Of a stretch of 64,000 nucleotides of DNA, positions 3,383 to 45,405 are shown in pieces (within the stretch, counting starts at the first letter, position 1; each line of letters begins with the position of its first letter). The position numbers and the translations under genes are program-made. Source of the stretch: a bacterium. GTDB lineage: Bacteria > Patescibacteriota > Patescibacteriia > JAHIZJ01. The DNA is taken from the NCBI GenBank assembly GCA_030699685.1, contig JAUYLJ010000027.1, positions 12,601 through 76,600 on the forward strand, read 5' to 3'. The notes below the pieces were generated by a model. That model saw only the letters and a program-made list of their open reading frames with translations, was not told the origin of the DNA and did not search any database.

Positions 3383-6300
3383 TTACTGTGTTTTTGAATA
3401 CCGTTTTTTCAGCCGATTACCCAAAGACTTCCAAACCGAGTACAGTACCGGGATGGCGATAAGCGTGCCCACGGTCGAGAAAATGAGGCCGGAAATGATG
3501 CTTGTGCCTAATCCTCGCCAGAACGGGTCCAGGATAGTCAGTGGCAAAATACCGCCAATGGTCGTAATGGAGGTGGAGAAAATCGGCTTGAAGCGGGTGT
3601 GTCCTGTCCGGACCAACAGGTCGGCAAATGACGCTTCAGGCATTTCTTCCCGGTACCGGTTGTAGGTAGCGATAAAGACGATCGCGTCGTTGACCACGAT
3701 TCCAACCAGAGCAATCACTCCCAGCCCGGAAATCATGTTCAGAGAGCTGCCGACTAGGAGTAAACCAGGAAACACGCCAATCAGCGCCAGCGGAACCGCA
3801 AATAGGATCAGTCCCGGTTGGATGTAGGAATTGAACTGATAGACCAGGATGAGGTAGACCAGTAGCATGGCCAAAAGGAAGACAATCTGGAGATTGCCAT
3901 AGTCTTCGGAAAAAGTGGCGAACAACCCACCAAAGATAATTCCATCCTTAGCTAGACCTAGTTCGACCAGCTTTTCCTCGGTGTAACGATCGCGGATTTT
4001 CTTTTCGATCGCTGCCGGGTCGGTGTCATCATCAACCGAGATGTTTACCGCGGCTACTCGGGAGCCGTTCAGACGGGCCAGTGAAGCGAGTCTTTCAACT
4101 TCCGATATCTCCGCCACCGAGTTCAAATCTGTCGTGCCGCCGTTCAGCGTCGGAACCCGGAGGTTTTGGAGATCCTCAATCGAATCGGTCGACTCATCAG
4201 CAAACGCCAGCTCTACGTCATCCGACACTCCGTCATCACGTATGACGATTGAACCTATTTTTTGCGGTGAAAAAACGGCATTTACCGTCCCGGCCGCGGC
4301 CAGGGAATTGACATTTTGGCTGGCCAATCGGTCTTGATCGAGATCAACTTCCACGGCCACCTGCAAGTCCGTCACGAGCGTTTCTTCAGTCTCCACTACT
4401 CCTTCTTCGTTGGCAAGAAACTCCGTCAAATCCGTGGAGGCGCGCGCCAGCGCTTCAGGATTGAGACCGAGAAACTCGACAATAATGTCGAATTCCGACT
4501 CAGGCGGCCCATATCCCGCAGGTTCGGCCACGATCTCTATGTCGTTCGAAAAATTCATCCTAACGAAGTTTAGCCGTTCATCCAGCTCGTCGTTGATCTG
4601 ATTGATGGTGATACCATCTTTTCGATCCTGAGGTGGAGTAAAGGTTGCCCAAACCAAACCCTCGTAGGTAAACGCAGTCTGAAAATGCGGCAGATCCACC
4701 ACTTCGGCCAAGGTCTGACGGAAAATCTCTTTTTGCGTCTCCGTAGTTGTGCCAGTCGGTGTCCGCAGCGTCACGAGGATGGTATCGGAATCATTTGTCG
4801 GAAACTCTTCGAACTTGAGTTGCGGAGCGAAGATTCCTAAACTGCCAAAGAGTAAAATAGCCGTCACCGCGATCACGCCGAATTTCCGCCAGCCGCTGGC
4901 GTAGATTCCCGTCATGAAATGCCGATAACCGCGGCTGAGCCAGTCAATAAAATTCTGTCCATAGTGGACAATGGCCGGAAGGACTAGGGCTTTTTCCCAG
5001 CCCCGAATCCGTGAGGCTCTCCGTTCTTCGTACGTCTGTTGGCGCAGAAGCCATCGGCCGAGCAAAGGAGTAATTGTCACCGCTAAAAAGTACGATGACA
5101 ATAACATAATGATAATGGTGTAGGGGATGAACTTCATGAACTCTCCCACTATCCCGCCAATCGATGCAAAAGGAATAAACACCACCACGGTCGTCAACGT
5201 TGCCGCGGTCACAGCTGGACCAAGTTTCATGATTGATGTCAGCGCGGCCTCACGCCGCTTGGCGCCTTTTTCTACCTCATGCACCATGCCCTCGGCGATG
5301 ACGATGGCATTGTCCACCAGAATTCCAAGAGTCAGAATCATGGCGAAGAGCGTCAGAATGTTCAACGTGAAGTCCATGACCGCCAACATAAACAGAGTAA
5401 TCAGAAAAACCATCGGAATGATCAGGGCCACCACGACTGCCGCTCTGAAATTGATGAAAAATAGTAATACGATCAGAATAAGAATCAGCCCCAGTAAACC
5501 GTTATTAAGCAAGGTAGAAATCTGATCCGTGATGAATGGTGAAGTGTCGTAAAGCACTACCAGCTCCATCCCCTCCGGCAAAACCACGCTCTGAATTTCT
5601 TCCGTTGTTTCCCGAACGGCTTCTGAGATCTCAATAATATCGCCATCGGCTTTTTTCAAAACCAAGAAATAGACCGCCTCTTTCACCTCAGCCGTACCAT
5701 CTTTCACGTAGCCGCCAAAAGTCACGGAGCTACCGGTCGCCTCACGGTTGAATTCCGCCAAATCGCCGAGCGTCACCGGACCGAAAGAAGTGCGGCGCAG
5801 GTCATCCAGCGACTGGACCGGAGCCTGGATGATGATGGATTTTTCCTGTCCGCTTTCTGTTTCGACCATACCCCCAGGTAGCGAAGTCAGCTGTGACTGG
5901 ATGGTACTTTTGACTAGATCATATGATAGACCAGCTTGAACGACAGCCGAAGCGTCAAGAGTGATGGTGATAACAAACTCATTGCCAGGGACAATATCGA
6001 TTTTCTCAATACCCGGCGACGCGGCAAGCAGCCTGGAACGAACCTCACTGGCATAATCCAGCATTTGGTTGATAGTTTGATCCTCGGTCGAAACCAAACC
6101 GAGTGAAAGCGACGGACCGGTCGGGTCCAATACCTCCACGCTTGTCTCCGCGTCGCTTGGTAAACCGAGTTTGGCCACTTCGGTGCTTAAAGTCTCGGCC
6201 GCATTTTCTGTCTCGAGCACGTCCTCCATCTCCACCGTAACAAAAGCAAAACTGTTGCTGATATTGGATCGCAAAGATTTCACGCCAGCCAGTTCGTCCA

Positions 6301-24545: not shown

Positions 24546-24621
24546 TGGTGGGTGCGGATGGATTTGAACCATCGACCGCAGCCTTATAAGGGCTGTGCTC
24601 TAACCACTGAGCTACGCACCC
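24546..24621 (-). tRNA. tRNA-Ile(TAT) (UAU anticodon) with CCA
   Basis: GGGTGCGTAGCTCAGTGGTTAGAGCACAGCCCTTATAAGGCTG...; anticodon loop CTTATAA. Confidence 0.7.
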
Positions 24622-24639
24622 ACCATAGATACACATATA

Positions 24640-24760
24640 ACAGAGTTGATATAAGCGTGGCGCTCTAACCACTGAGCTATGCACCCACCGCAAACAATCA
24701 AAAGGTGTCGATATAAGGGCTGTGCTCTAACCACTGAGTTTCGAGGTCCGGCCCTGCTAC
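24640..24760 (-). repeat. two degenerate tRNA 5'-half copies (through anticodon loop ...CTTATA) directly adjacent to tRNA-Ile(TAT)
   Basis: minus-strand GGTGGGTGCATAGCTCAGTGGTTAGAGCGCCACGCTTATA and ...ACTCAGTGGTTAGAGCACAGCCCTTATA, both lacking 3' halves. Confidence 0.5.
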
Positions 24761-31218: not shown

Positions 31219-31321
31219 ATGTGTCTGTAGACTACTGCCCGGTAGAACCAAGTCCTGCGCCAGAGACACGAGGCTTTACCGGAAACCCCTGAATAAGAGT
31301 TTTGTCCCGCAGCCCACACTT

Positions 31322-31398
31322 TGGAGGCCAGGAGGGGATTTGAACCCCTGAATAAGGGTTTTGCAGACCCTCGCCTTAGACCACTTGGCTACCTGGCC
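31322..31398 (-). tRNA. tRNA-Cys(GCA) with CCA
   Basis: GGCCAGGTAGCCAAGTGG...loop CTGCAAA...GGTTCAAATCC. Confidence 0.85.
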
Positions 31399-38721: not shown

Positions 38722-39092
38722 ATAGACAGTATACTCCAGATAAAAAAATAAAAACACCCAGCAATAGGGTGTTTTTAATACCAACTTTTCTGGCCGGTCG
38801 AGGTAATGAGATAATGCCTCGCGAACGCGGGGTCAGCTGCAGTACATGATGCGCTTTGAGGAGACCCCGCCAAGGCGGGGAAAAAACGATCAGATCATAC
38901 AGCTGAATTCAAACCTCGAACCGGCCGGAAAAAATGGTTTCCGAAATCTTCTTCCAAGCACTTCATCGTACCGATGCAGCTCTTGGGAAAAGGTCCGAAT
39001 CCGCGCGTCCCACCAGTCGTTACCAGGGAACCGCGGATTCGGATTGTCGGCGAGATCATCGATACAAGGATCGAATTACCCGCCAGACGCCA

Positions 39093-39209
39093 TCACTTAC
39101 TCCACCTTCTTTCGTTCCGCCTGGAGATGAGCCAGGCGGCCAGAACGATGAGAGCGAGTGGCGCCCCGAAGAGCACCGCCGGGTGCAGGGAAGAAATCAA
39201 CTCACTCAT
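39093..39209 (-). CDS. 38-aa single-TM peptide with basic C-terminal tail (not in ORF track)
   Basis: MSELISSLHPAVLFGAPLALIVLAAWLISRRNERRWSK; RBS GGGAGGTAGAAC directly upstream. Confidence 0.45.
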   Translation of the reverse strand: MSELISSLHPAVLFGAPLALIVLAAWLISRRNERRWSK

Positions 39210-39212
39210 GTT

Positions 39213-39302
39213 CTACCTCCCATCTTGCATCAGCCGGTACCGTTTCCACCCGCCATAGCCGGTGAAATCGAAGAACACGATCTGTACGGCCAGCTGGGCC
39301 AT
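39213..39302 (-). CDS. 29-aa peptide (not in ORF track)
   Basis: MAQLAVQIVFFDFTGYGGWKRYRLMQDGR; RBS GGAGGTGA; stop overlaps the RBS of the next tiny ORF. Confidence 0.4.
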   Translation of the reverse strand: MAQLAVQIVFFDFTGYGGWKRYRLMQDGR

Positions 39303-39339
39303 CAGTCACCTCCTGTTCTCAACTGGATCCCGTAACTGC

Positions 39340-39750
39340 CTAAAAGTCCGACACGGACTCGCGGGTTCCTTCATCATCGTAGCTCATCCCCAATGTACGA
39401 ACCTCGCTTGGAGACAGAAGGGAATACACAACATAGCCTGCAGTCACGTGCTGGAAAGTTTCCAGCAGTGAAAACACCCGTCGTCCGTGGCGTCGCATCA
39501 TTTCCGCGTGGTGCGAACAAAGGACCGCCACATCACCATCAAGCTCATCCCGGCTGATGTTGTACATCTCGCTCGCCGGAGCGAGATGCTTGCAACCGCG
39601 AATAGCACACTGGAATTGAGTGATAGTGTTCGGACCGCAAGCGGCCCGGATGCTGCACAACTTCCAGCCGATTGTACCCTCCGGAATCAATTTGATTCCA
39701 TTGGGTTTGAGAACAAACACGAGCTTGGTCACTACCCGGAGCACAAACAT
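39340..39750 (-). CDS. hypothetical Cys-rich protein (136 aa)
   Basis: RBS AAGGAGA 7 nt before internal ATG; multiple Cys/His suggest metal binding. Confidence 0.5.
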   Translation of the reverse strand: MFVLRVVTKLVFVLKPNGIKLIPEGTIGWKLCSIRAACGPNTITQFQCAIRGCKHLAPASEMYNISRDELDGDVAVLCSHHAEMMRRHGRRVFSLLETFQHVTAGYVVYSLLSPSEVRTLGMSYDDEGTRESVSDF

Positions 39751-39926
39751 AGCTGATCTCCTTCCCACTGGGAAGACTGAAGCAAAATCAATCGAATGAA
39801 CTCCTGCTCAATCCATCACCTTGTACGGCGGTGAATTCGGGAGGAGGCCTGTCACGATCTCTTGACTGCCCTGAGGGGCAGGGTATAGTGAAGCACACGG
39901 TAGGAAGTGTCAATGAAGGAAAAAGA

Positions 39927-40247
39927 ATGTCCAAACTTCTCAAAAAGGAATACAAGGGGGTAAGTAATGACCGGTTGGCGCGCATGATCGCGCGGGGCTT
40001 TGTTGACGTGGATAAAAGGTTTGATGAAGTACATGCGGAATTGGCCACCAAAGCCTCGAAAGAGGATGTGCACGGAGTGGAAACTCGGCTGGACAGGGTC
40101 GAAACACGACTAACCGGAGTGGAAACTCGGCTGGATGGAGTAGAAACTCACATCAACGGCCTTGAATTCAAGGTAGACCGAGCGCTCTACTCCGAATACA
40201 CTCATCTAGAACGACGAGTCAGTCGGCTCGAAAAAAAGGCGGGCTAA
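39927..40247 (+). CDS. hypothetical protein with four tandem 7-aa (21-bp) VETRLDx repeats
   Basis: RBS GAAGGAAAAAG before ATG 39927; coiled-coil-like. Confidence 0.45.
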   Translation: MSKLLKKEYKGVSNDRLARMIARGFVDVDKRFDEVHAELATKASKEDVHGVETRLDRVETRLTGVETRLDGVETHINGLEFKVDRALYSEYTHLERRVSRLEKKAG

Positions 40248-40466
40248 TCTAAATATTCAACGCTGGGTATTACTGTGACATTGCGGTCATGAATTTTGTA
40301 TTTCTCTCCAGAATATTCATGCAATAAATACTCTGGAGAGCCCCGAACCATACGATAGTCCGGGGAAGGTGGAAAGCGGCAGGAACGCTTCCCGGAGGAA
40401 ATAGCGAGGAACTTTTTCAGCCTGCCGACCCGATCACCTGACCGAGCCGCTGAAAAAGGGAGGGGG

Positions 40467-40634
40467 TTACCGCTCAACCCTATAGAACCTGTGGCCGCTC
40501 CACGCCATCAGCGCGAGACCGCCCAGGATACCAAAAAGGCAAGCGCAGGCCGTCAATGGCCCGATCGGCCTGGTCAGCGTGACCAGCGACCCGAGAGTCG
40601 CCAGCTCACCCAGGACCAACAAAATGATGGACAT
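40467..40634 (-). CDS. 55-aa two-TM membrane peptide
   Basis: RBS TAAGGAGGGCACC before ATG. Confidence 0.5.
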   Translation of the reverse strand: MSIILLVLGELATLGSLVTLTRPIGPLTACACLFGILGGLALMAWSGHRFYRVER

Positions 40635-40654
40635 GGTGCCCTCCTTACCTGACG

Positions 40655-40870
40655 TTATCGGGTCGGCCGAAGCCTCCCGTTGCCGTAGGTGGTGAAGAAC
40701 CCGATACACACACCTACAAACGCCAGAATCCAGCCAAGTCTGCTGATGACCAACAGCTCCGGCTGGGGTTGACCTGCCACTCCCGTCACAATGACGGCAA
40801 TGACGGTCAGCGCCGAGAATCCCGCATAGGATTTGAACAAGAAGCCCAGAAACTCATTGACCCAACACAT
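40655..40870 (-). CDS. 71-aa two-TM membrane peptide
   Basis: RBS AAGGAGG 8 nt before ATG. Confidence 0.55.
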   Translation of the reverse strand: MCWVNEFLGFLFKSYAGFSALTVIAVIVTGVAGQPQPELLVISRLGWILAFVGVCIGFFTTYGNGRLRPTR

Positions 40871-40921
40871 CTTGTATGCCTCCTTACTAACTTCACCAGC
40901 ACCTGCCGAAAGAGTATTACA

Positions 40922-41125
40922 TCAATGACCCGACGCCTCAAGAAGCCGGACCACTTCATCCCAGTTGATCAGAGCAACCACGCCCCCGACCAACCCATAT
41001 GCCCACCAAAGTTTTGTGAAAACCGTGACGGGTGCTGCCCAATGGGCGCACACCATCACAGTCAGTACCATCAGCCCGCTAAACCAAAGGGCTGATTTGA
41101 AAACCCAACCGATAACCATCTTCAT
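40922..41125 (-). CDS. 67-aa two-TM membrane peptide
   Basis: RBS GAGGAGGAG before ATG 41125. Confidence 0.5.
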   Translation of the reverse strand: MKMVIGWVFKSALWFSGLMVLTVMVCAHWAAPVTVFTKLWWAYGLVGGVVALINWDEVVRLLEASGH

Positions 41126-41453
41126 GTCTCCTCCTCGTGAGGGTAAAACAAAATCTTCCAGCGGGGTAAGAAACCACATCCCAACCTCGAGATTCGAAGT
41201 TCGGACGCTTCCAAAGTCGTTCATCGCCGTATCGATGCAGTACTTTGGAAGTACCCGGCCAGAGTCGCGTGGTGCGAAACTGGCCGGGGCGGAACACTGT
41301 CAGCGTACACTCGGCGTTCCGCCAAGACGACGCTGGTGTTCCTCGTGAGTGACGCACGAACAGGTGCCCGTGCGACACTCTTCAGCATACGCAGCCTGGA
41401 GAGCGGCCACTAACGCGATCAATTGTTCCTTGTCCACTTCTCGCTCCTTTCTA

Positions 41454-41891
41454 TCACGCTTGCTGTCGGAGGCGCGAGCGGAGGCGTCGGAGCTGAGGTA
41501 CAACCAATAGGTCGTGCTCCAACTCTCGACATCGCCAGCGCGCTTCGGCGCGAAGGCGATCCGCCTCGCGCCGCTCTGACTCCTGGCGCTCCCACTCGAT
41601 CCGCTCCTGCTCTCGCAGAAGCCAAGCCTCGAGGAAGCGCTTGAGCGTGTCCGTCAGACGGAAAGCCCTCTCCGGCCTATGGTCGGAGCAGTAGGGGTAA
41701 AGATCACCCCCGGTCTGCCCGATGTGCGGGCAGAACACACGCCGCGCCACACAGACCTTCCCGCACTGGTAGCAGGCGAAGCTACCAGCGTTGGCATCGC
41801 TCAGGAGTCCACGCACCTCGGCCTCTTTGAAGGCCTTCGGTACGAAAAATCCTCCCTCGGACAAAACCATGATCGAGATAGAGAACAACAT
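41454..41891 (-). CDS. hypothetical Cys-cluster protein with Arg/Glu-rich C-terminal helix
   Basis: RBS AAGGAGG 5 nt before ATG; CYQCGKVC...FCPH...YCSDH. Confidence 0.5.
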   Translation of the reverse strand: MLFSISIMVLSEGGFFVPKAFKEAEVRGLLSDANAGSFACYQCGKVCVARRVFCPHIGQTGGDLYPYCSDHRPERAFRLTDTLKRFLEAWLLREQERIEWERQESERREADRLRAEARWRCRELEHDLLVVPQLRRLRSRLRQQA

Positions 41892-42390
41892 GCGTTCCTC
41901 CTTACTGACTTTTCCGGCGTCAGCTGCCGTTGTAGAGAAACCATTTTCTCTCCGCAGCCCTCATCACAAATAATGGTAGTGAAAAGCTTTGGAAGAAAGG
42001 GCGAGGAGGAGGGACCACGTCATTTGCAGCGGGCGCGATTGAGCCGATCGCCGAAGCTGCATGCGTTGGATATACACCCTCACTCCTCGCGTCGTTGTTT
42101 GCGTCCCGATATCTCGATCCGGACGCTCCTAAAATCGTTCTCCGACACAGACTTATTCGACAAGAATCAAGCGAGCTGCAAAATAATAACTTTATGAGAA
42201 CGACTTAAGGAGAATAAATTGTCAACGTTCATGCCGTAAGTGAATCCTCTTTTCAGCGCTCCTCCCAGAATACCGGGGAAACGCTGAAAAGGGAATTCGA
42301 ATCACGCGATGACTCGTCGTCAGCCGCGTCGATCTGGAGGTGAGAATGAACACAGTTATGACCCGGCTATGCCGAATGCTCCGTGTTCTA

Positions 42391-42645
42391 CCAGTTTCTT
42401 ATGAAAATCTTCAGTTCGCACCGAAGACAATCATCTCCGCTGGTTTCCTCCGCCTCCAAGTCGACGCGGATGACTAAGCAAAAGTTCTTAGATAAGGACA
42501 GTGATCTGGAGGAGAGATGGTGGAATCAGTTTGTTCCTTCCGAAGAAGAAAGCTCTGACTCCCACCAGTTTCTTATGAAAGTCTTCAGTTCGCACCGAAG
42601 ACAATCATCTCCACTGGTTTCCTCCGCCTCCAAGTCAGTGTCCTT
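42391..42645. repeat. two 72-bp direct repeats (3 mismatches) spaced 183 bp apart
   Basis: 42391-42462 and 42574-42645. Confidence 0.7.
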
Positions 42646-43212
42646 GCCCTCGGGTTTGGGGCGACCGGATTCGGTCCAATATATGTTCGTGACCGCCGGT
42701 CATACCGCCCCAAATTCGGGGACAAGCATTGCTGATGAGATTTCTCGACAGTGATCTCTCGACTTCGCTCGAGATTGATTTCCTCGCTCTGCGAGGAAAT
42801 CAAAAAGGTGGTGGCTCGCTATCGTGTTTTCCGTGGAGAAAAAAACACCGTAGCAAACCACCACCTTCATAGGATTGGTGTTTGGAATCGGCGGCCTTTC
42901 TCCTCAGAAAGCCGTTGCGTTGTAATGTGCCTCCGTTTGAAAACTTCCAGCGTAACCGCGCATGATAGCGCACCTGGCAAAACTTGTCAAGACCTCTCTG
43001 GAGTAGTTTCGCTAATATTAGGCAAGATAAATTACTTTTGAGAACTTAAAAAAACGACTACAAAAGGCCAAAATCTAGACCGTGTATCATTCAATATTAA
43101 TGTCGTGATCAGCGCCAGCCGTTTTTCCCTGCGGGCTTGAAGGCTCTGGCTACACACAACAATCCAGCTTTCTCCTCTATACTACCGTTCTGGTTTCCGA
43201 TACAATACACGC

Positions 43213-43644
43213 ATGCCGCCATCAAATAAAAATTTCCACGTCGGATTGAAAGCGATTATTCGTCGTAATTCTGAATTTCTGGGTGTCAAAAACACCCGCA
43301 ACCGCTACTGGACCCTGCCCGGCGGCCGGATCGAGGAACGCGACCTGGATTTGCCGGTAATCGAATGTCTACGCCGGGAGTTGCTCGAGGAGCTTGGTTT
43401 ACGAGCGAAAATTGAAATAGGTAAGGTATTTGACATGATTAAATACAAGACCTCTCCTGACGACCATTCGCCGAATCAAAAAATATTTCTGATATGCTAT
43501 GATTGTCAGTTCGACGGGGGTGAAATTGTGCTCAAAAAAGACGAGCTGGAACAATTTGAATGGCTCGATAAAGAAAACTACAAGCAATATGATTTCGGCG
43601 TACTGCAGAAAACAATTGATCGCTTCGTCGCGGAAAAACTCTAA
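43213..43644 (+). CDS. NUDIX hydrolase
   Basis: GGRIEERDLDLPVIECLRRELLEELGL Nudix box. Confidence 0.8.
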   Translation: MPPSNKNFHVGLKAIIRRNSEFLGVKNTRNRYWTLPGGRIEERDLDLPVIECLRRELLEELGLRAKIEIGKVFDMIKYKTSPDDHSPNQKIFLICYDCQFDGGEIVLKKDELEQFEWLDKENYKQYDFGVLQKTIDRFVAEKL

Positions 43645-43685
43645 CGCTTGCGTATTGTGAAAATAAGAGGCAGTATGAAAAACGT

Positions 43686-43720
43686 GCCGGGGTGGTGGAA
43701 TGGTAGACACAAGGGACTTA
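43686..43720 (+). pseudogene. tRNA-Leu(TAA) 5' part (acceptor, D-arm, anticodon stem through CTTA) with no 3' part
   Basis: identical to 43804-43838 of the intact copy. Confidence 0.7.
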
Positions 43721-43770
43721 CCCCGAACTACGATGAGTTCGGGGTACCCGGTACCCAACGCGGTTCCGGG
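43721..43770 (+). repeat. 50-nt GC-rich double-hairpin element, copy 1
   Basis: CCCCGAAC-TACGATGA-GTTCGGGG plus CCCGGTAC-CCAACGCG-GTTCCGGG. Confidence 0.8.
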
Positions 43771-43803
43771 TAAAATCCTTCAGCACATCACAACAAAAAG
43801 AAT

Positions 43804-43889
43804 GCCGGGGTGGTGGAATGGTAGACACAAGGGACTTAAAATCCCTCGACCACAAGGTCGTGCGAGTTCGAATCTCGCCCCCGGCACCA
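43804..43889 (+). tRNA. tRNA-Leu(TAA), intact, with CCA
   Basis: acceptor GCCGGGG/CCCCGGC, anticodon loop CTTAAAA, long variable arm, T-loop TTCGAAT. Confidence 0.85.
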
Positions 43890-43914
43890 ACAATGACAGC
43901 AGGGAGAGTATGGA

Positions 43915-44196
43915 GTGTGTATGTACTATGTGTATGTGCTTCGGGGCGTAACACAAGATCGTTACTACATCGGTCGTACCGAGAATCTTCAAAAGAGAAT
44001 CTCGCAACACAAAAAAGGGGAGGTTTGGACAAGCCGTCGACTTGGTGTTTGGCAATTAATGTTTTATGAAGCGTTTCTTGCCAAAGCCGATGCCATTCGC
44101 CGAGAGCGATACCTGAAAACAAGCAAAGGAAGATCTACACTGAATCTCATGCTTAGAGAAAGCTTGCGTCTCGTGGCTTACCCCGAACTACGATGA
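43915..44196 (+). CDS. small GIY-YIG nuclease family protein (YhbQ/UPF0213-like)
   Basis: YYVYVLRG...[20 protein letters not shown]...RRERYLK; stop codon lies inside hairpin copy 2. Confidence 0.7.
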
Positions 44197-44230
44197 GTTC
44201 GGGGTACCCGGTACCCAACGCGGTACCGGG
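44181..44230 (+). repeat. 50-nt GC-rich double-hairpin element, copy 2 (1 mismatch vs copy 1)
   Basis: preceded by CTTA, followed by TAAAATCC, as for copy 1. Confidence 0.8.
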
Positions 44231-44283
44231 TAAAATCCCTCGACCACAAGGTCGTGCGAGTTCGAATCTCGCCCCCGGCACCA
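44231..44283 (+). pseudogene. tRNA-Leu(TAA) 3' part (53 nt, identical to 43837-43889) with no 5' part
   Basis: seen in sequence. Confidence 0.7.
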
Positions 44284-44475
44284 AAACCTCACTACCGTGA
44301 GAATCCTTATTTTGATCGCAAAAACGTTTCGATGTCTTCCGCCGGGTACCACTAATATATTACCCTGGGCTTGACCGGCAACAAAACAAAATGAACAACA
44401 CCGGACAAAGACCCGTTTTTAGCGCCGCCTAAAAAAGACTGACGAAAAAGATCGGCAGGGTATCTGGCGTTAAAC

Positions 44476-45405
44476 CTATTTACGCTTTGGCGCTTCTTCA
44501 CTCTTCTCCGCCAGCGCGATCGGCATGACGATTTGCAGGGCGATGATGTTCAGCAGAATTTGATTGTTGTAGCTGAAGTCGCGACCTTTGTCTTTTTCGC
44601 CAAGGAAAATCGCTCCTATCACCCGTTCGCCCATAATAAGCGGCGCGGCCAACATTGTTTCTACCGAATACGGCGCGCGCAGGGATTTTTGTTTCCGATA
44701 CATTTCCTTCGTGACCACCACTTCGCGCTTGCTTTTGTAGACCAGGCCGAGAATCGGATCATCTTTCAGTCCAATTTTGAGATTCTTCATGAACTGGTTG
44801 TTTTCGTATCCACGCGCGTCATAAATTTGTATCCGATCCTCGTCGGGGTGGAAGAGGACAAAAGCGGCGCGGTTGGCCTTGATGATCTGTAATATTGTCG
44901 TCAGCACCAAATCAGTCAAATGATCGAGGTCTTCGTACGTTGAGGCAACTTTACTGGTCGTGAAAATCGTCATCAGCTTGTTGTTGGCGTGATGCAAACG
45001 CAAGTCAAGGTTGGCAATAACGTTCGCATATACCTTGCTGACAATTTGGGGGTAGTCTTCGGCCAGCTTGATGAAATCCTTGCCGCGAATTTCAATCAAA
45101 TCGCCTTCTTCCATCACTTCACCATTATGCTGGTGCTTTAACTTGGGTCCGGTCAAGGCGCTTTCCACCGCAAAATTATCCTTGCCTAGAAAAGCGAGGG
45201 TCTGCACTTCATTCTCAAAAACTCGATAGATATGGACTTTACCGCTCAAGACGATAAAAAACGAACGCCGCTGGTCGCCTTGTTCGAAAAGCACCTCGCC
45301 TTTTCTGTATTTCTTGATCGTGATGATCTTCGCCAGCACCTGCAGTTCAGGCGAACTCAAGCCATCGAAGACTCCGATCTTTTCAAGTATTTTTGTATCA
45401 ATCAT
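44476..45405 (-). CDS. cyclic-nucleotide-binding domain plus GAF domain protein
   Basis: Crp-like cNMP-binding beta-barrel motifs (RKGEVLFEQGD...FFIVLSGKV) then GAF-like C-terminal half. Confidence 0.6.
   Translation of the reverse strand: MIDTKILEKIGVFDGLSSPELQVLAKIITIKKYRKGEVLFEQGDQRRSFFIVLSGKVHIYRVFENEVQTLAFLGKDNFAVESALTGPKLKHQHNGEVMEEGDLIEIRGKDFIKLAEDYPQIVSKVYANVIANLDLRLHHANNKLMTIFTTSKVASTYEDLDHLTDLVLTTILQIIKANRAAFVLFHPDEDRIQIYDARGYENNQFMKNLKIGLKDDPILGLVYKSKREVVVTKEMYRKQKSLRAPYSVETMLAAPLIMGERVIGAIFLGEKDKGRDFSYNNQILLNIIALQIVMPIALAEKSEEAPKRK

Follow-up and report, generated by a model that had tools for sequence, protein, structure and literature searches.

The stretch of DNA discussed here, hereafter the window, comprises 64,000 nucleotides of a metagenome-assembled genome of a bacterium from the Patescibacteriota (contig JAUYLJ010000027.1, positions 12,601 to 76,600). 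It contains a locus at which a gene for tRNA-Leu(UAA) lies broken in two. A 5' half that stops in the anticodon loop and the matching 3' half are separated by two direct copies of a double hairpin, which we call E (E1 and E2), and between these copies lie an intact gene for tRNA-Leu(UAA) and a gene for a small GIY-YIG nuclease (Table 1). In our opinion it is fairly probable that the locus represents one complete selfish homing cassette, intron-like but non-splicing, whose target is position 34/35 in the anticodon loop of tRNA-Leu(UAA) and which carries a replacement tRNA with it.

Structure of the locus

The original prediction, which was made from the sequence alone, described a scrambled tRNA-Leu(UAA) gene with two half-genes, and the identities and the layout that it gave were all reproduced by self-comparison and BLAST. 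The relic 5' half is identical to the intact copy at 35 of 35 positions, the repeat extending to 43 nt at 93% identity; it covers positions 1-36 of the tRNA-Leu(UAA) profile, and ARAGORN calls no tRNA there. The relic 3' half was expected to match the intact copy over 53 nt, which it does (53/53 by BLAST), and the repeat is in fact one base longer (54/54, to 44284); it corresponds to positions 35-87 of the profile. Only one complete tRNA-Leu(UAA) had been expected between the half-genes, and indeed ARAGORN makes a single tRNA-Leu(UAA) call in the window, that of the intact copy, rather than three tRNA calls. This copy, carried within the cassette, is presumably the functional one.

The GIY-YIG reading frame does end in a hairpin loop, as had been noticed: the first hairpin of E2 has the stop codon of the frame, TGA at 44194-44196, in its loop. 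Two details had to be corrected. The frame does not encode 94 amino acids, but 93 from a GTG at 43915 or 91 from an ATG at 43921, of which the ATG start agrees with the homologues; and the spacer between TAAAATCC, which directly follows E1, and the intact tRNA measures 25 nt instead of 23. Short mimics of the anticodon loop, a' and b', adjoin the inner sides of the two hairpin elements. The counterpart of b' after E1 is AAATCY in nearly all related loci, and the counterpart of a' before E2 is GGACT(TA).

The contig of the Logan assembly of the same organism ends inside the relic 3' repeat, as real repeats cause contigs to do in short-read assembly. An assembly artefact as the source of the locus is excluded, since the junctions consist of unique sequence and the same architecture is present in more than 50 independent assemblies, drawn from NCBI, JGI, ENA and Logan.

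Table 1. Features of the tRNA-Leu(UAA) locus and of two further loci with tRNA relics in the window
Feature	Position in the window	Strand	Remarks
Relic 5' half of the resident tRNA-Leu(UAA), positions 1-35	43686-43720	+	ends ...GGGACTTA, in the anticodon loop
E1, 54-nt double-hairpin element	43719-43772	+	first TA shared with the relic 5' half
b', eroded mimic of the anticodon stem-loop, 3' side	43773-43787	+	AAATCCTTCAGCAC; compare AAATCCCTCGACCAC of the real 3' half
Intact tRNA-Leu(UAA) with encoded CCA	43804-43889	+	ARAGORN; Rfam RF00005, 61.4 bits
Stand-alone GIY-YIG nuclease gene, 91 amino acids from ATG	43921-44196	+	Pfam PF01541, E 6.5e-15
a' (gCTTA), short mimic of the anticodon loop, 5' side	44177-44180	+	directly before E2
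E2, second 54-nt double hairpin	44179-44232	+	both stems perfect
Relic 3' half of the resident tRNA-Leu(UAA)	44231-44283	+	TAAAATCCC...CACCA
Two relic tRNA-Ile(UAU) 5' parts	24657-24738	-	upstream of the intact gene 24546-24621
Relic tRNA-Cys 3' fragment, positions 36-56	31284-31321	-	20/21 identical; just after tRNA-Cys(GCA) 31322-31398

The hairpin element

E1 reads TA-CCCCGAACT ACGATG AGTTCGGGG-TA-CCCGGTACC CAACGC GGTTCCGGG-TA. A double hairpin present twice with one mismatch had been reported, and exactly two copies exist in the 64 kb (43721-43772 and 44181-44232), where none would be expected by chance; the mismatch sits in the second stem. The reported length of 50 nt stands for the core, while the element is better described as one of 54 nt with the format TA-24-TA-24-TA, a format found in all 60 copies of E collected across loci. 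Together with its flanks the direct repeat amounts to 65 nt (CTTA...TAAAATCC[T/C]TC). Each of the window copies folds into two 10-bp hairpins, with DNA free energies of -17.7 and -20.8 kcal/mol and z scores of -3.7 and -5.3 against shuffled controls (E2: -20.8 kcal/mol, z -5.25).

The first unit has the form CCC nnn ACC / ACGTRG / GGT n'n'n' GGG and the second repeats it, but with a reverse-complemented loop. E as a whole is two-fold symmetric around a near-invariant centre, GGGTACCC; it consists of two palindromic 24-nt units, and its ends, TACCC and GGGTA, are near-invariant as well. The filter by which copies were gathered required 7 or more of 9 stem pairs and favours pairing but not compensation. 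In 39 distinct copies, 98.2% of the stem cells are paired. Double changes occur at 10 of the 20 pairs (108 cells), a value that none of 500 shuffles reaches, and the signal collapses in controls with a slid register. Nearly all changes in the stems lead from one Watson-Crick pair to another and G-U is rare. Such near-purely Watson-Crick covariation points to a constraint on DNA, that is, to E as a DNA hairpin or cruciform, or as a product of palindrome-regenerating copying, rather than to a structure selected as RNA.

Nine loci have two or more copies of E, and in each of them the copies are near-identical, the stem triplets varying from locus to locus. Four copies lie outside tRNA genes. Three of these have 5-bp direct repeats beyond their TA ends (L030 1506-1559, GAATT; L059 3319-3372, TAATC; L063 1184-1237, AAATC), and the flanks of the fourth (L045 1600-1653) mimic the anticodon loop (GGACCT...AAAGTTC). 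No copy in a tRNA has such direct repeats. The two units of E act as inverted repeats. Further, two loci that are about 99.5% identical around the cassette, L023 and L024, differ near position 5513 of L023 by a single 29-nt hairpin unit, CCCAGAACT CCACGC AGTTCTGGG, which is a recent gain or loss of one unit.

One may ask on these grounds whether the hairpin came first, E being an autonomous miniature mobile element (like a miniature inverted-repeat transposable element (MITE), a REPIN or a double-hairpin element) that is moved by an enzyme encoded elsewhere. E would then prefer the exposed DNA loops of tRNA genes and knock these genes out, the duplicated tRNA would be a rescue by the host, and the GIY-YIG gene would be a separate hitch-hiker or a host nuclease that processes hairpins. 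The four copies outside tRNA genes, three of them with direct repeats, would be expected of such an element; so would the gain and loss of single units, which can also nest within each other (L003, L002), the many loci that have E but no nuclease gene, two solo tRNA genes interrupted by E alone (L033, L052), and the other hairpin families that we find in the D- and T-loops of relics. In our opinion this explanation is nonetheless unlikely, given that E is not dispersed. E-type units are present only at the tRNA-Leu locus in the genome loci scanned, both copies of the window included; each of eight longer related contigs has one doublet site, and in about 130 kb of related loci there is essentially no E elsewhere. 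In 56 of the 60 copies, E sits at one site, with GGACT on the left and AAATC on the right, i.e. in the anticodon loop of tRNA-Leu(UAA), be it a real half or a short mimic. The many dispersed copies per genome by which a MITE or a dispersed palindromic repeat is recognized are not seen in these sequences. Of the earlier suggestion of a miniature hairpin element that inserts at TA, we retain that E is a unit of its own, as the rare copies outside tRNAs and the indel of one unit indicate, and we drop the idea of an independent genome-wide repeat. E is not a widespread intergenic repeat unrelated to tRNAs, an outcome that the original prediction had named as its possible refutation.

A resemblance of the hairpin arms to the R-boxes of integron attC sites, also pointed out earlier, proves superficial: the eight open reading frames scanned near the locus contain no integrase domain, and E is a symmetric pair of perfect hairpins, unlike the imperfect hairpin of an attC site with its R''/L''-L'/R' boxes and extrahelical bases.

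Elsewhere in the window, at 40341-40365, the hairpin CCCCGAACCATACGATAGTCCGGGG has CCCCGAAC and TACGAT in common with unit 1 of E, either by chance or as a stray unit that has decayed.

The nuclease

The protein belongs to the GIY-YIG superfamily, as it has the domain (PF01541) above the cut-off together with the catalytic Tyr, Tyr, Arg, His and Glu. Y5, Y16, R26, H30, E62 and K66 are invariant among 67 homologues, and given this conservation of the catalytic residues the nuclease is probably active. Its AlphaFold model is a single domain with a predicted local distance difference test (pLDDT) score of 86.6, to which the nearest solved structures are those of UPF0213 BH0048 and Slx1, followed by the catalytic domain of I-TevI. 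Slx1 is a structure-selective nuclease acting on branched DNA. Judged from the model, the enzyme is a catalytic domain alone, closest to the structure-selective Slx1/UPF0213 branch. Indeed, the separate DNA-binding region (NUMOD, zinc finger or helix-turn-helix) that a linker joins to the catalytic domain in classical GIY-YIG homing endonucleases of the I-TevI/Seg type is absent from the 91 amino acids, and the homologues mostly have 80-90. The NCBIfam model for group I intron endonucleases reaches 15.6 bits against a cut-off of 56, and no NCBIfam model exceeds its cut-off.

A protein search gave 48 homologues with 45-62% identity (the best 62%). The family is very large: with a profile of the two subfamilies of the nuclease, 7,656 cluster representatives are retrieved at E<=1e-10. 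Our literature search found no assigned function for the UPF0213/YhbQ-like GIY-YIG family of about 85 amino acids. Relatives in phages did not turn up either: there were 0 tblastn matches in 50,697 phage records, and the match to PHROG was weak.

One of the related loci, L071, has a further small GIY-YIG gene at 780-1040, between infB and rbfA and with no tRNA beside it; this gene is flanked by a 16-nt inverted repeat, CCCCACACCTAATGAG / CTCATTAGGTGTGGGG.

Recurrence of the locus in Patescibacteria

We found about 60 independent loci with the same parts, nearly all of them in the ultra-small bacteria of the Patescibacteria. A search that started from the nuclease, and was independent of E, retrieved L002, L003 and L004-7; in all four distinct loci that were fetched the nuclease gene abuts tRNA-Leu(UAA), and upstream of it are a tRNA-Leu 5' half ending CTTA and a double hairpin of other sequence but the same form. 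Two DNA patterns were used in turn, both independent of the nuclease. The first, the hairpin with its tRNA flanks, gave 13 loci in a collection of bacteria and archaea with one genome per species, 12 of them of Patescibacteria type; by a rough hand estimate less than one chance match is expected. One match of this pattern, L012 from the cyanobacterium Alkalinema, was taken as a chance match, there being no tRNA, no hairpins of this kind and no nuclease in it. The second pattern, the hairpin alone without flanks, gave 43 metagenome loci and 0 matches in viral contigs. A nuclease gene lies beside E in most of the loci found by these patterns.

The canonical order is relic 5' half (A), E, AAATCY, nuclease gene (G), intact tRNA-Leu(UAA) (T), GGACT, E and relic 3' half (B), with the nuclease gene beginning 5-30 nt after E. 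This close spacing is difficult to reconcile with the nuclease as an independent hitch-hiker of a mobile hairpin. Shortened forms are common (A-E-G-T, T-E-B, A-E-T), and so are forms with extra relics (T-E-B-E-B; A-E-G-A-E...). The cassette itself consists of E, the GIY-YIG gene and the intact tRNA-Leu(UAA) in either order, and E again. The order of the window, T before G, recurs in its syntenic relatives L025 and L023/L024, and also in L038; the gene order in the syntenic relatives is UDG, a cNMP/GAF protein, the locus, SpoU and NUDIX. From this recurrence T-G appears to be a lineage-specific variant of one clade, inherited at a fixed syntenic site. The SpoU methylase gene that stands between the NUDIX gene and the tRNA-Leu locus in relatives (L021, L023, L025) is absent in the window, where the relic 5' half begins 41 nt past the NUDIX stop codon (the gap being 43645-43685).

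Two loci deserve separate mention. L033 and L052 (at 260-400 and 193-330, respectively, each counted from one end) have solo tRNA-Leu(UAA) genes with E as the sole interruption. Each gene has a promoter of its own, TTGACT-17-TATAAT, as well as a terminator, and neither an intact copy nor a nuclease gene is present in the 2.3 and 6.9 kb. Between the two loci the halves differ at 2 of 83 positions, E differs at 6 of 54, and the flanks differ by roughly 7-20% (manual count).

It is conceivable that such interrupted genes are functional, E being removed from the precursor tRNA by a protein-dependent bacterial intron system, or the halves being joined in trans as in Nanoarchaeum. The good promoters and terminators, the mutual compatibility of the halves and the 2/83 differences in the halves as against 6/54 in E would all make sense then. 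The same can be said of position 34/35, the classical intron site (PMC13011429), and of a LigT-like RNA ligase/CPDase gene which follows the cassette in L004 and L005. We consider the RNA-level explanation very improbable all the same. An intact, uninterrupted copy is present in cis at nearly every locus; the relics are shortened or full of extra hairpins; the covariation in the stems, near-purely Watson-Crick with G-U rare, is unlike that produced by selection on RNA; the E stems of L052 carry mismatches; and E1 and E2 cannot pair in a register that would align the halves. Nor did Rfam give an intron or ribozyme match at E<=10, or inspection by eye a bulge-helix-bulge motif.

The Rfam search, made at E<=10 on 43300-44700 and at the gathering score on the whole window, found only tRNAs and neither an intron nor a small ribozyme. 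The remark that this is the classic site of group I introns is apt, and 34/35 fits it, yet there is no ribozyme: Intron_gpI (RF00028) has no match under either setting, and the core has 50 nt. A hammerhead-like 'CGATGAG' seen by eye gained no support from the same search. We also rejected an archaeal-type tRNA intron or split tRNA, as the relic with E folds into two plain hairpins without a bulge-helix-bulge and the hosts are bacterial. The earlier proposal of a split or permuted tRNA with trans-pairing leaders is not supported, in view of the intact copies in cis, the decay of the relics and the bacterial hosts. E1 and E2 are direct repeats whose hairpins cannot pair in register to join the halves, and their apparent 73% 'complementarity' comes through the internal palindromes only.

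Origin of the inner tRNA

The identity of relics to the inner tRNA ranges across loci from 100%, as in the window, down to about 65-70% (24/34, 25/35, 33/47, 35/51). The two relic halves of L004 match as perfect complements along both the acceptor and the anticodon stem (GGGCGAG/CTCGCCC, ACGGA/TCCGT), whereas the inner tRNA (GCCCGAG...) differs from the relics and has compensating pairs of its own. The inner tRNA must have been brought in, since a dead relic cannot keep its self-complementarity while a selected gene changes at one-third of its positions. L043 goes further, with the arrangement A1 - E - G - T - a' - E - B1 - a'' - E - B0. Here the relic A1 finds its pairing partner in B1, and no two of T, B1 and B0 share the same tRNA-Leu(UAA) sequence, the three being nested in one another; at least two successive invasions are required to produce this. 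Other loci with multiple relics are L002, L032, L041, L055 and L058. Relics that pair together but are unlike the inner tRNA, and loci with relics of two or three tRNA-Leu genes, argue that the cassette arrives from outside, and does so repeatedly. As for the window, the identity of its relics to the inner gene reflects a recent event, a conspecific donor or later homogenisation. The system has what is expected of a homing-type element, a precise and constant site in a conserved gene, a patchy distribution and signs of horizontal arrival, and the idea of a GIY-YIG-associated mobile cassette that copied the tRNA, one of several offered at the outset, is essentially what the comparative data support.

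The foreign inner tRNAs bear on two of the alternatives. If hairpins had knocked out tRNA genes and the host had rescued itself by duplication, the inner tRNAs should not be foreign to the relics; rescue of this kind cannot explain them. They also cannot come from local duplication, and neither can the nested, unlike relics. This leaves little room for the view that the locus is an assembly or binning artefact, or a purely local tandem duplication without any mobility, which we regard as extremely improbable: the window does belong to a metagenome-assembled genome, short-read contigs do break at the repeat, and the copies in the window are identical, as after a recent local duplication, but the junctions lie in unique sequence and more than 50 assemblies have the same architecture.

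The system is also lost and eroded. In L021, a syntenic relative, both the nuclease gene and the E of the anticodon have disappeared. Relics decay in that they become shortened and acquire extra hairpins in their D- and T-loops, where other hairpin families are present (L011, L013, L021, L047, L049, L070). A second hairpin family, CCTGCCTGYCGGCAGGCAGG, occurs in the D-arm of relic 5' halves in L021 (about 4990-5230), L047 (1010-1040) and L049, which belong to unrelated lineages; hairpins in relic T-loops are seen in L011, L013, L025 and L070.

Cassettes in other tRNA genes

The same arrangement exists at a second tRNA. In L069 (380-1340) a tRNA-Cys(GCA) cassette begins with a relic 5' half ending CTG and a 31-nt double hairpin, continues with a paralogous nuclease and an intact tRNA-Cys, and closes with another copy of the hairpin and a relic 3' part; further tRNA-Cys cassettes are in L070 (1250-2060) and L071 (1400-1950). 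The Cys-type double hairpin of 31 nt, TCCCGC-TRC-GCGGGA TCTSGC-GTA-GCSAGA, has two loops that are reverse complements. The Cys-type nuclease is 28-39% identical to the protein of the window and has homologues in 92 clusters. As in the tRNA-Leu loci, relic halves may pair together and differ from the inner tRNA-Cys (L070). Each subfamily of the nuclease goes with its own type of hairpin and its own tRNA, a specificity that independent hitch-hiking on a mobile hairpin does not explain.

In tRNA-Cys the insertion is unambiguous. It lies between 34 and 35 and there is no duplication. By analogy, the insertion in tRNA-Leu is likely at 34/35 as well, with the flanking TAs as stem-closing pairs. It had been claimed that the element sits in the anticodon itself with a 2-bp TA duplication. 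The anticodon-loop site is correct, while the duplication is not established, and we reject the transposon reading based on it as unproven, because the TAs are part of the stems and there is no duplication in the tRNA-Cys version.

Relics of two other tRNAs are found in the window (Table 1). The two relic 5' parts of tRNA-Ile(UAU) cover positions 11-37 (100% identity) and 1-25 (96%). Both stop at CTTATA within the anticodon loop, after each comes a spacer of about 25 nt, and neither has a hairpin or a nuclease gene with it. They look like products of the same replacement process at a third tRNA. The relic of tRNA-Cys is preceded by GGGCTGCGGGA|CAAAAC, which is similar to a decayed Cys-type double hairpin of L069-L071.

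Proposed mechanism and its difficulties

The role that we give to the nuclease is suggested by its genetic linkage. It would break the tRNA-Leu(UAA) gene in or beside the anticodon-loop DNA, or at extruded E hairpins. The break would then be repaired by recombination from a cassette-bearing copy, the conserved tRNA halves serving as homology arms. Splicing cannot remove the insert from an essential tRNA, so only those cassettes that bring a replacement tRNA would survive. Shortened forms (5' relic-E-GIY-tRNA; tRNA-E-3' relic) would result where the strand that invades or is captured pairs with the inner tRNA instead of a relic, and recombination between a relic and the inner half would yield duplications (L002, L023, L041) and losses (L021). 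E would most likely be a structure at which a dimer of the nuclease binds or cleaves, and at the same time the boundary of the cassette, duplicated or homogenised in each event. Its symmetry, conserved base, centre and loops would fit a binding or cutting site of a dimer. The near-identity of E1 and E2 and the copied flanks (a' of L043 over 17/18 nt; b' of the window) suggest that E is duplicated or converted with a few flanking bases each time.

Several observations weigh against this scenario. The protein of 83-91 amino acids has no DNA-binding domain, which classical GIY-YIG homing endonucleases need for site specificity. It is linkage that ties the nuclease to the process, and its cleavage site and substrate are putative. 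The anticodon loop of the inner tRNA has the target sequence, and in the window the inner tRNA is identical to the relics, so a sequence-specific enzyme would cut its own cargo. Plain homing needs neither E nor the mimics a' and b' inside the cassette. About 40% of the E-bearing loci have no nuclease gene in the available sequence (L013, L020, L033, L046, L047, L052, L053 and others). Close relatives of the window yielded no strictly empty site, the syntenic ones all carrying some form of the system, and much of the distribution could be due to vertical inheritance at a single tRNA-Leu(UAA) gene with local rearrangement.

The nuclease-tRNA module might instead, as a small circle or segment, integrate into a tRNA gene that already carried E. 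The route would be a crossover between two Es, or nicks staggered to the left and right of E, by which E and a few flanking bases would be duplicated; the module would resemble a cassette at its attachment site, or else a transposon of the IS200/IS605 kind, with single-strand hairpins, that inserts 3' of CTTA. Set against IS200/IS605-type elements, or against repetitive extragenic palindromes (REP) and their associated tyrosine transposases (RAYT), E has hairpins, the fixed 5' motif (A)CTTA and no duplication, and the nearby reading frames scanned contain no HUH (Y1) transposase domain. On the integration account it is understandable that E1 and E2 are near-identical direct repeats in every two-copy locus, that a' and b' mimic the target (17/18 nt of the relic 5' half for a' in L043, about 15 nt like the real 3' half for b' in the window), and that E is two-fold symmetric like the sites of dimeric enzymes, the nearest relatives of the nuclease being structure-selective. 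The solo A-E-B genes (L033, L052) would approximate the empty site, and the free a'-E-b'-like unit of L045 the junction. We hold recombination at E to be quite unlikely, however. GIY-YIG enzymes are hydrolytic, and we know of none that performs strand transfer or conservative recombination. The eight nearby open reading frames scanned contain no recombinase, integrase or transposase domain, an HUH transposase included. Moreover, a dead tRNA gene would have to pre-exist as the target, and relic halves without E on one side (L004; L016, where E1 is partly deleted) fit break repair equally well.

Besides homing, two departures from it can together be given limited, tentative credence. In the first, the Slx1-like GIY-YIG protein and the symmetric double hairpin would form a new, structure-recognising machine of DNA mobility: extruded hairpins or cloverleaf loops would be recognised instead of sequence, and hairpins with cargo would be inserted in the loops of tRNA genes, so that reduced genomes would have these genes replaced serially. 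In the second, to which we allow a slim chance, the solo interrupted genes of L033 and L052 would be functional and E would be a protein-dependent intervening sequence of bacterial tRNA.

Relation to known systems

Genomic islands and prophages in tRNA genes use tyrosine or serine integrases, usually at the 3' end; only the overlap is duplicated, and a replacement for the displaced part is carried. Like the cassette, they take an essential tRNA gene as landing site, restore its function by the tRNA sequence they bring and leave the displaced fragment at the far end. The cassette is unlike them: the nearby reading frames scanned have no integrase domain, the gene is broken at its anticodon loop, the tRNA that comes with the cassette is complete, and the two halves of the old gene both stay behind.

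In its working the cassette is most like a free-standing homing endonuclease gene, such as that of T4 SegB or those of the 'fractured genes', as far as analogy can tell. The free-standing GIY-YIG homing genes of T-even phages (Seg; PMC2330249) likewise have the nuclease gene outside introns and by tRNA genes, SegB lying in the tRNA gene cluster of T4 (PMC2330249). For both, the proposed mode of spread is break repair ('intronless homing'), by which the gene would be passed on with linked markers, and linked tRNA genes travel with it. Seg enzymes have about 200 amino acids or more with a DNA-binding domain, in contrast to the 83-91 amino acids of catalytic domain in the cassette, and the cassette, unlike Seg genes, inserts inside a tRNA gene, has double-hairpin ends and leaves relic halves, with no phage relatives found. 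The 'fractured genes' (PMC2677866) share with it an endonuclease gene (GIY-YIG or Vsr-like) between the halves of a host gene and a conserved hairpin just upstream of its start; their halves are functional, through split inteins or subunit assembly (PMC2677866), while those of the cassette are dead, a full replacement gene is present and there is a hairpin at both ends.

The group I intron at 34/35 in the anticodon loop of tRNA-Leu(UAA), known from cyanobacteria, plastids and some other bacteria (PMC13011429), resides in the same gene and, within the TA ambiguity, at the same point; it too is precisely inserted without a clear target duplication, and some tRNA introns carry homing endonuclease genes as the cassette carries its nuclease gene. 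The cassette differs in having no ribozyme, and function is restored by a second intact copy, not by splicing. A recent paper on tRNA introns of Patescibacteria (PMC13011429, 2026) reports HNH, PD-(D/E)XK and LAGLIDADG genes in tRNA introns and mentions neither GIY-YIG nor hairpins. The split tRNAs of Nanoarchaeum equitans and other disrupted archaeal tRNAs (PMC3978253, PMC4090602) are also broken in the anticodon loop, with G+C-rich sequence at the break. Their halves are the sole copy and have mutually complementary leaders and a bulge-helix-bulge for the splicing endonuclease, none of which applies to the cassette.

The hairpins themselves are reminiscent of the double-hairpin elements known from fungal mitochondria (Paquin et al. 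2000, cited through PMC10085805), which are dispersed and multi-copy and have no linked enzyme. Like E, these elements are short, G+C-rich pairs of adjacent hairpins, apparently mobile, in or beside RNA genes and kept across species. E differs from the elements so described in being bacterial, confined to one target site, strictly 54 nt long, symmetric and linked to nuclease and tRNA genes. Cassettes made of a GIY-YIG gene, a tRNA and hairpins were not found described in our literature search.

Significance

If our favoured interpretation as a homing cassette is true, it represents a third way to invade an essential gene, in which a whole spare copy is brought and the old gene is left in pieces. 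Introns and inteins, by contrast, splice themselves out, and integrase islands rebuild the end of the gene. It would also provide a biological context for the very large UPF0213/YhbQ-like GIY-YIG family of about 85 amino acids, and it would mean that the tRNA genes of reduced genomes are horizontally replaced again and again, which matters wherever tRNA genes or their synteny are taken as markers. For annotation, the clusters of tRNA half-genes and hairpins around tRNA genes of Patescibacteria, of which the window has three, can confuse tRNA calls and break assemblies. Finally, the symmetric, covarying pair of 54-nt hairpins is a ready substrate for studying how a minimal GIY-YIG enzyme finds its target, and possibly a tool.

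Additional observations

Directly downstream of the cassette in L004 (3438-4004) and L005 (3351-3917) lies a gene similar to those of 2H-phosphoesterases or 2',5' RNA ligases (PF07823, PF13563); its presence beside the cassette may be a coincidence. L004 further contains, at 150-450, a tRNA-Leu(CAG) nested in an older tRNA-Leu gene that is split in the D-arm, with no hairpin and no nuclease gene.

Upstream of the locus in the window, the stretches at about 39000-42000 and 42383-42754 have a raised G+C content (0.56-0.58, compared with about 0.48). They contain short overlapping open reading frames only, without a Pfam match, and in one of these frames the peptide FLMK[IV]FSSHRRQSSPLVSSASKS is present twice.

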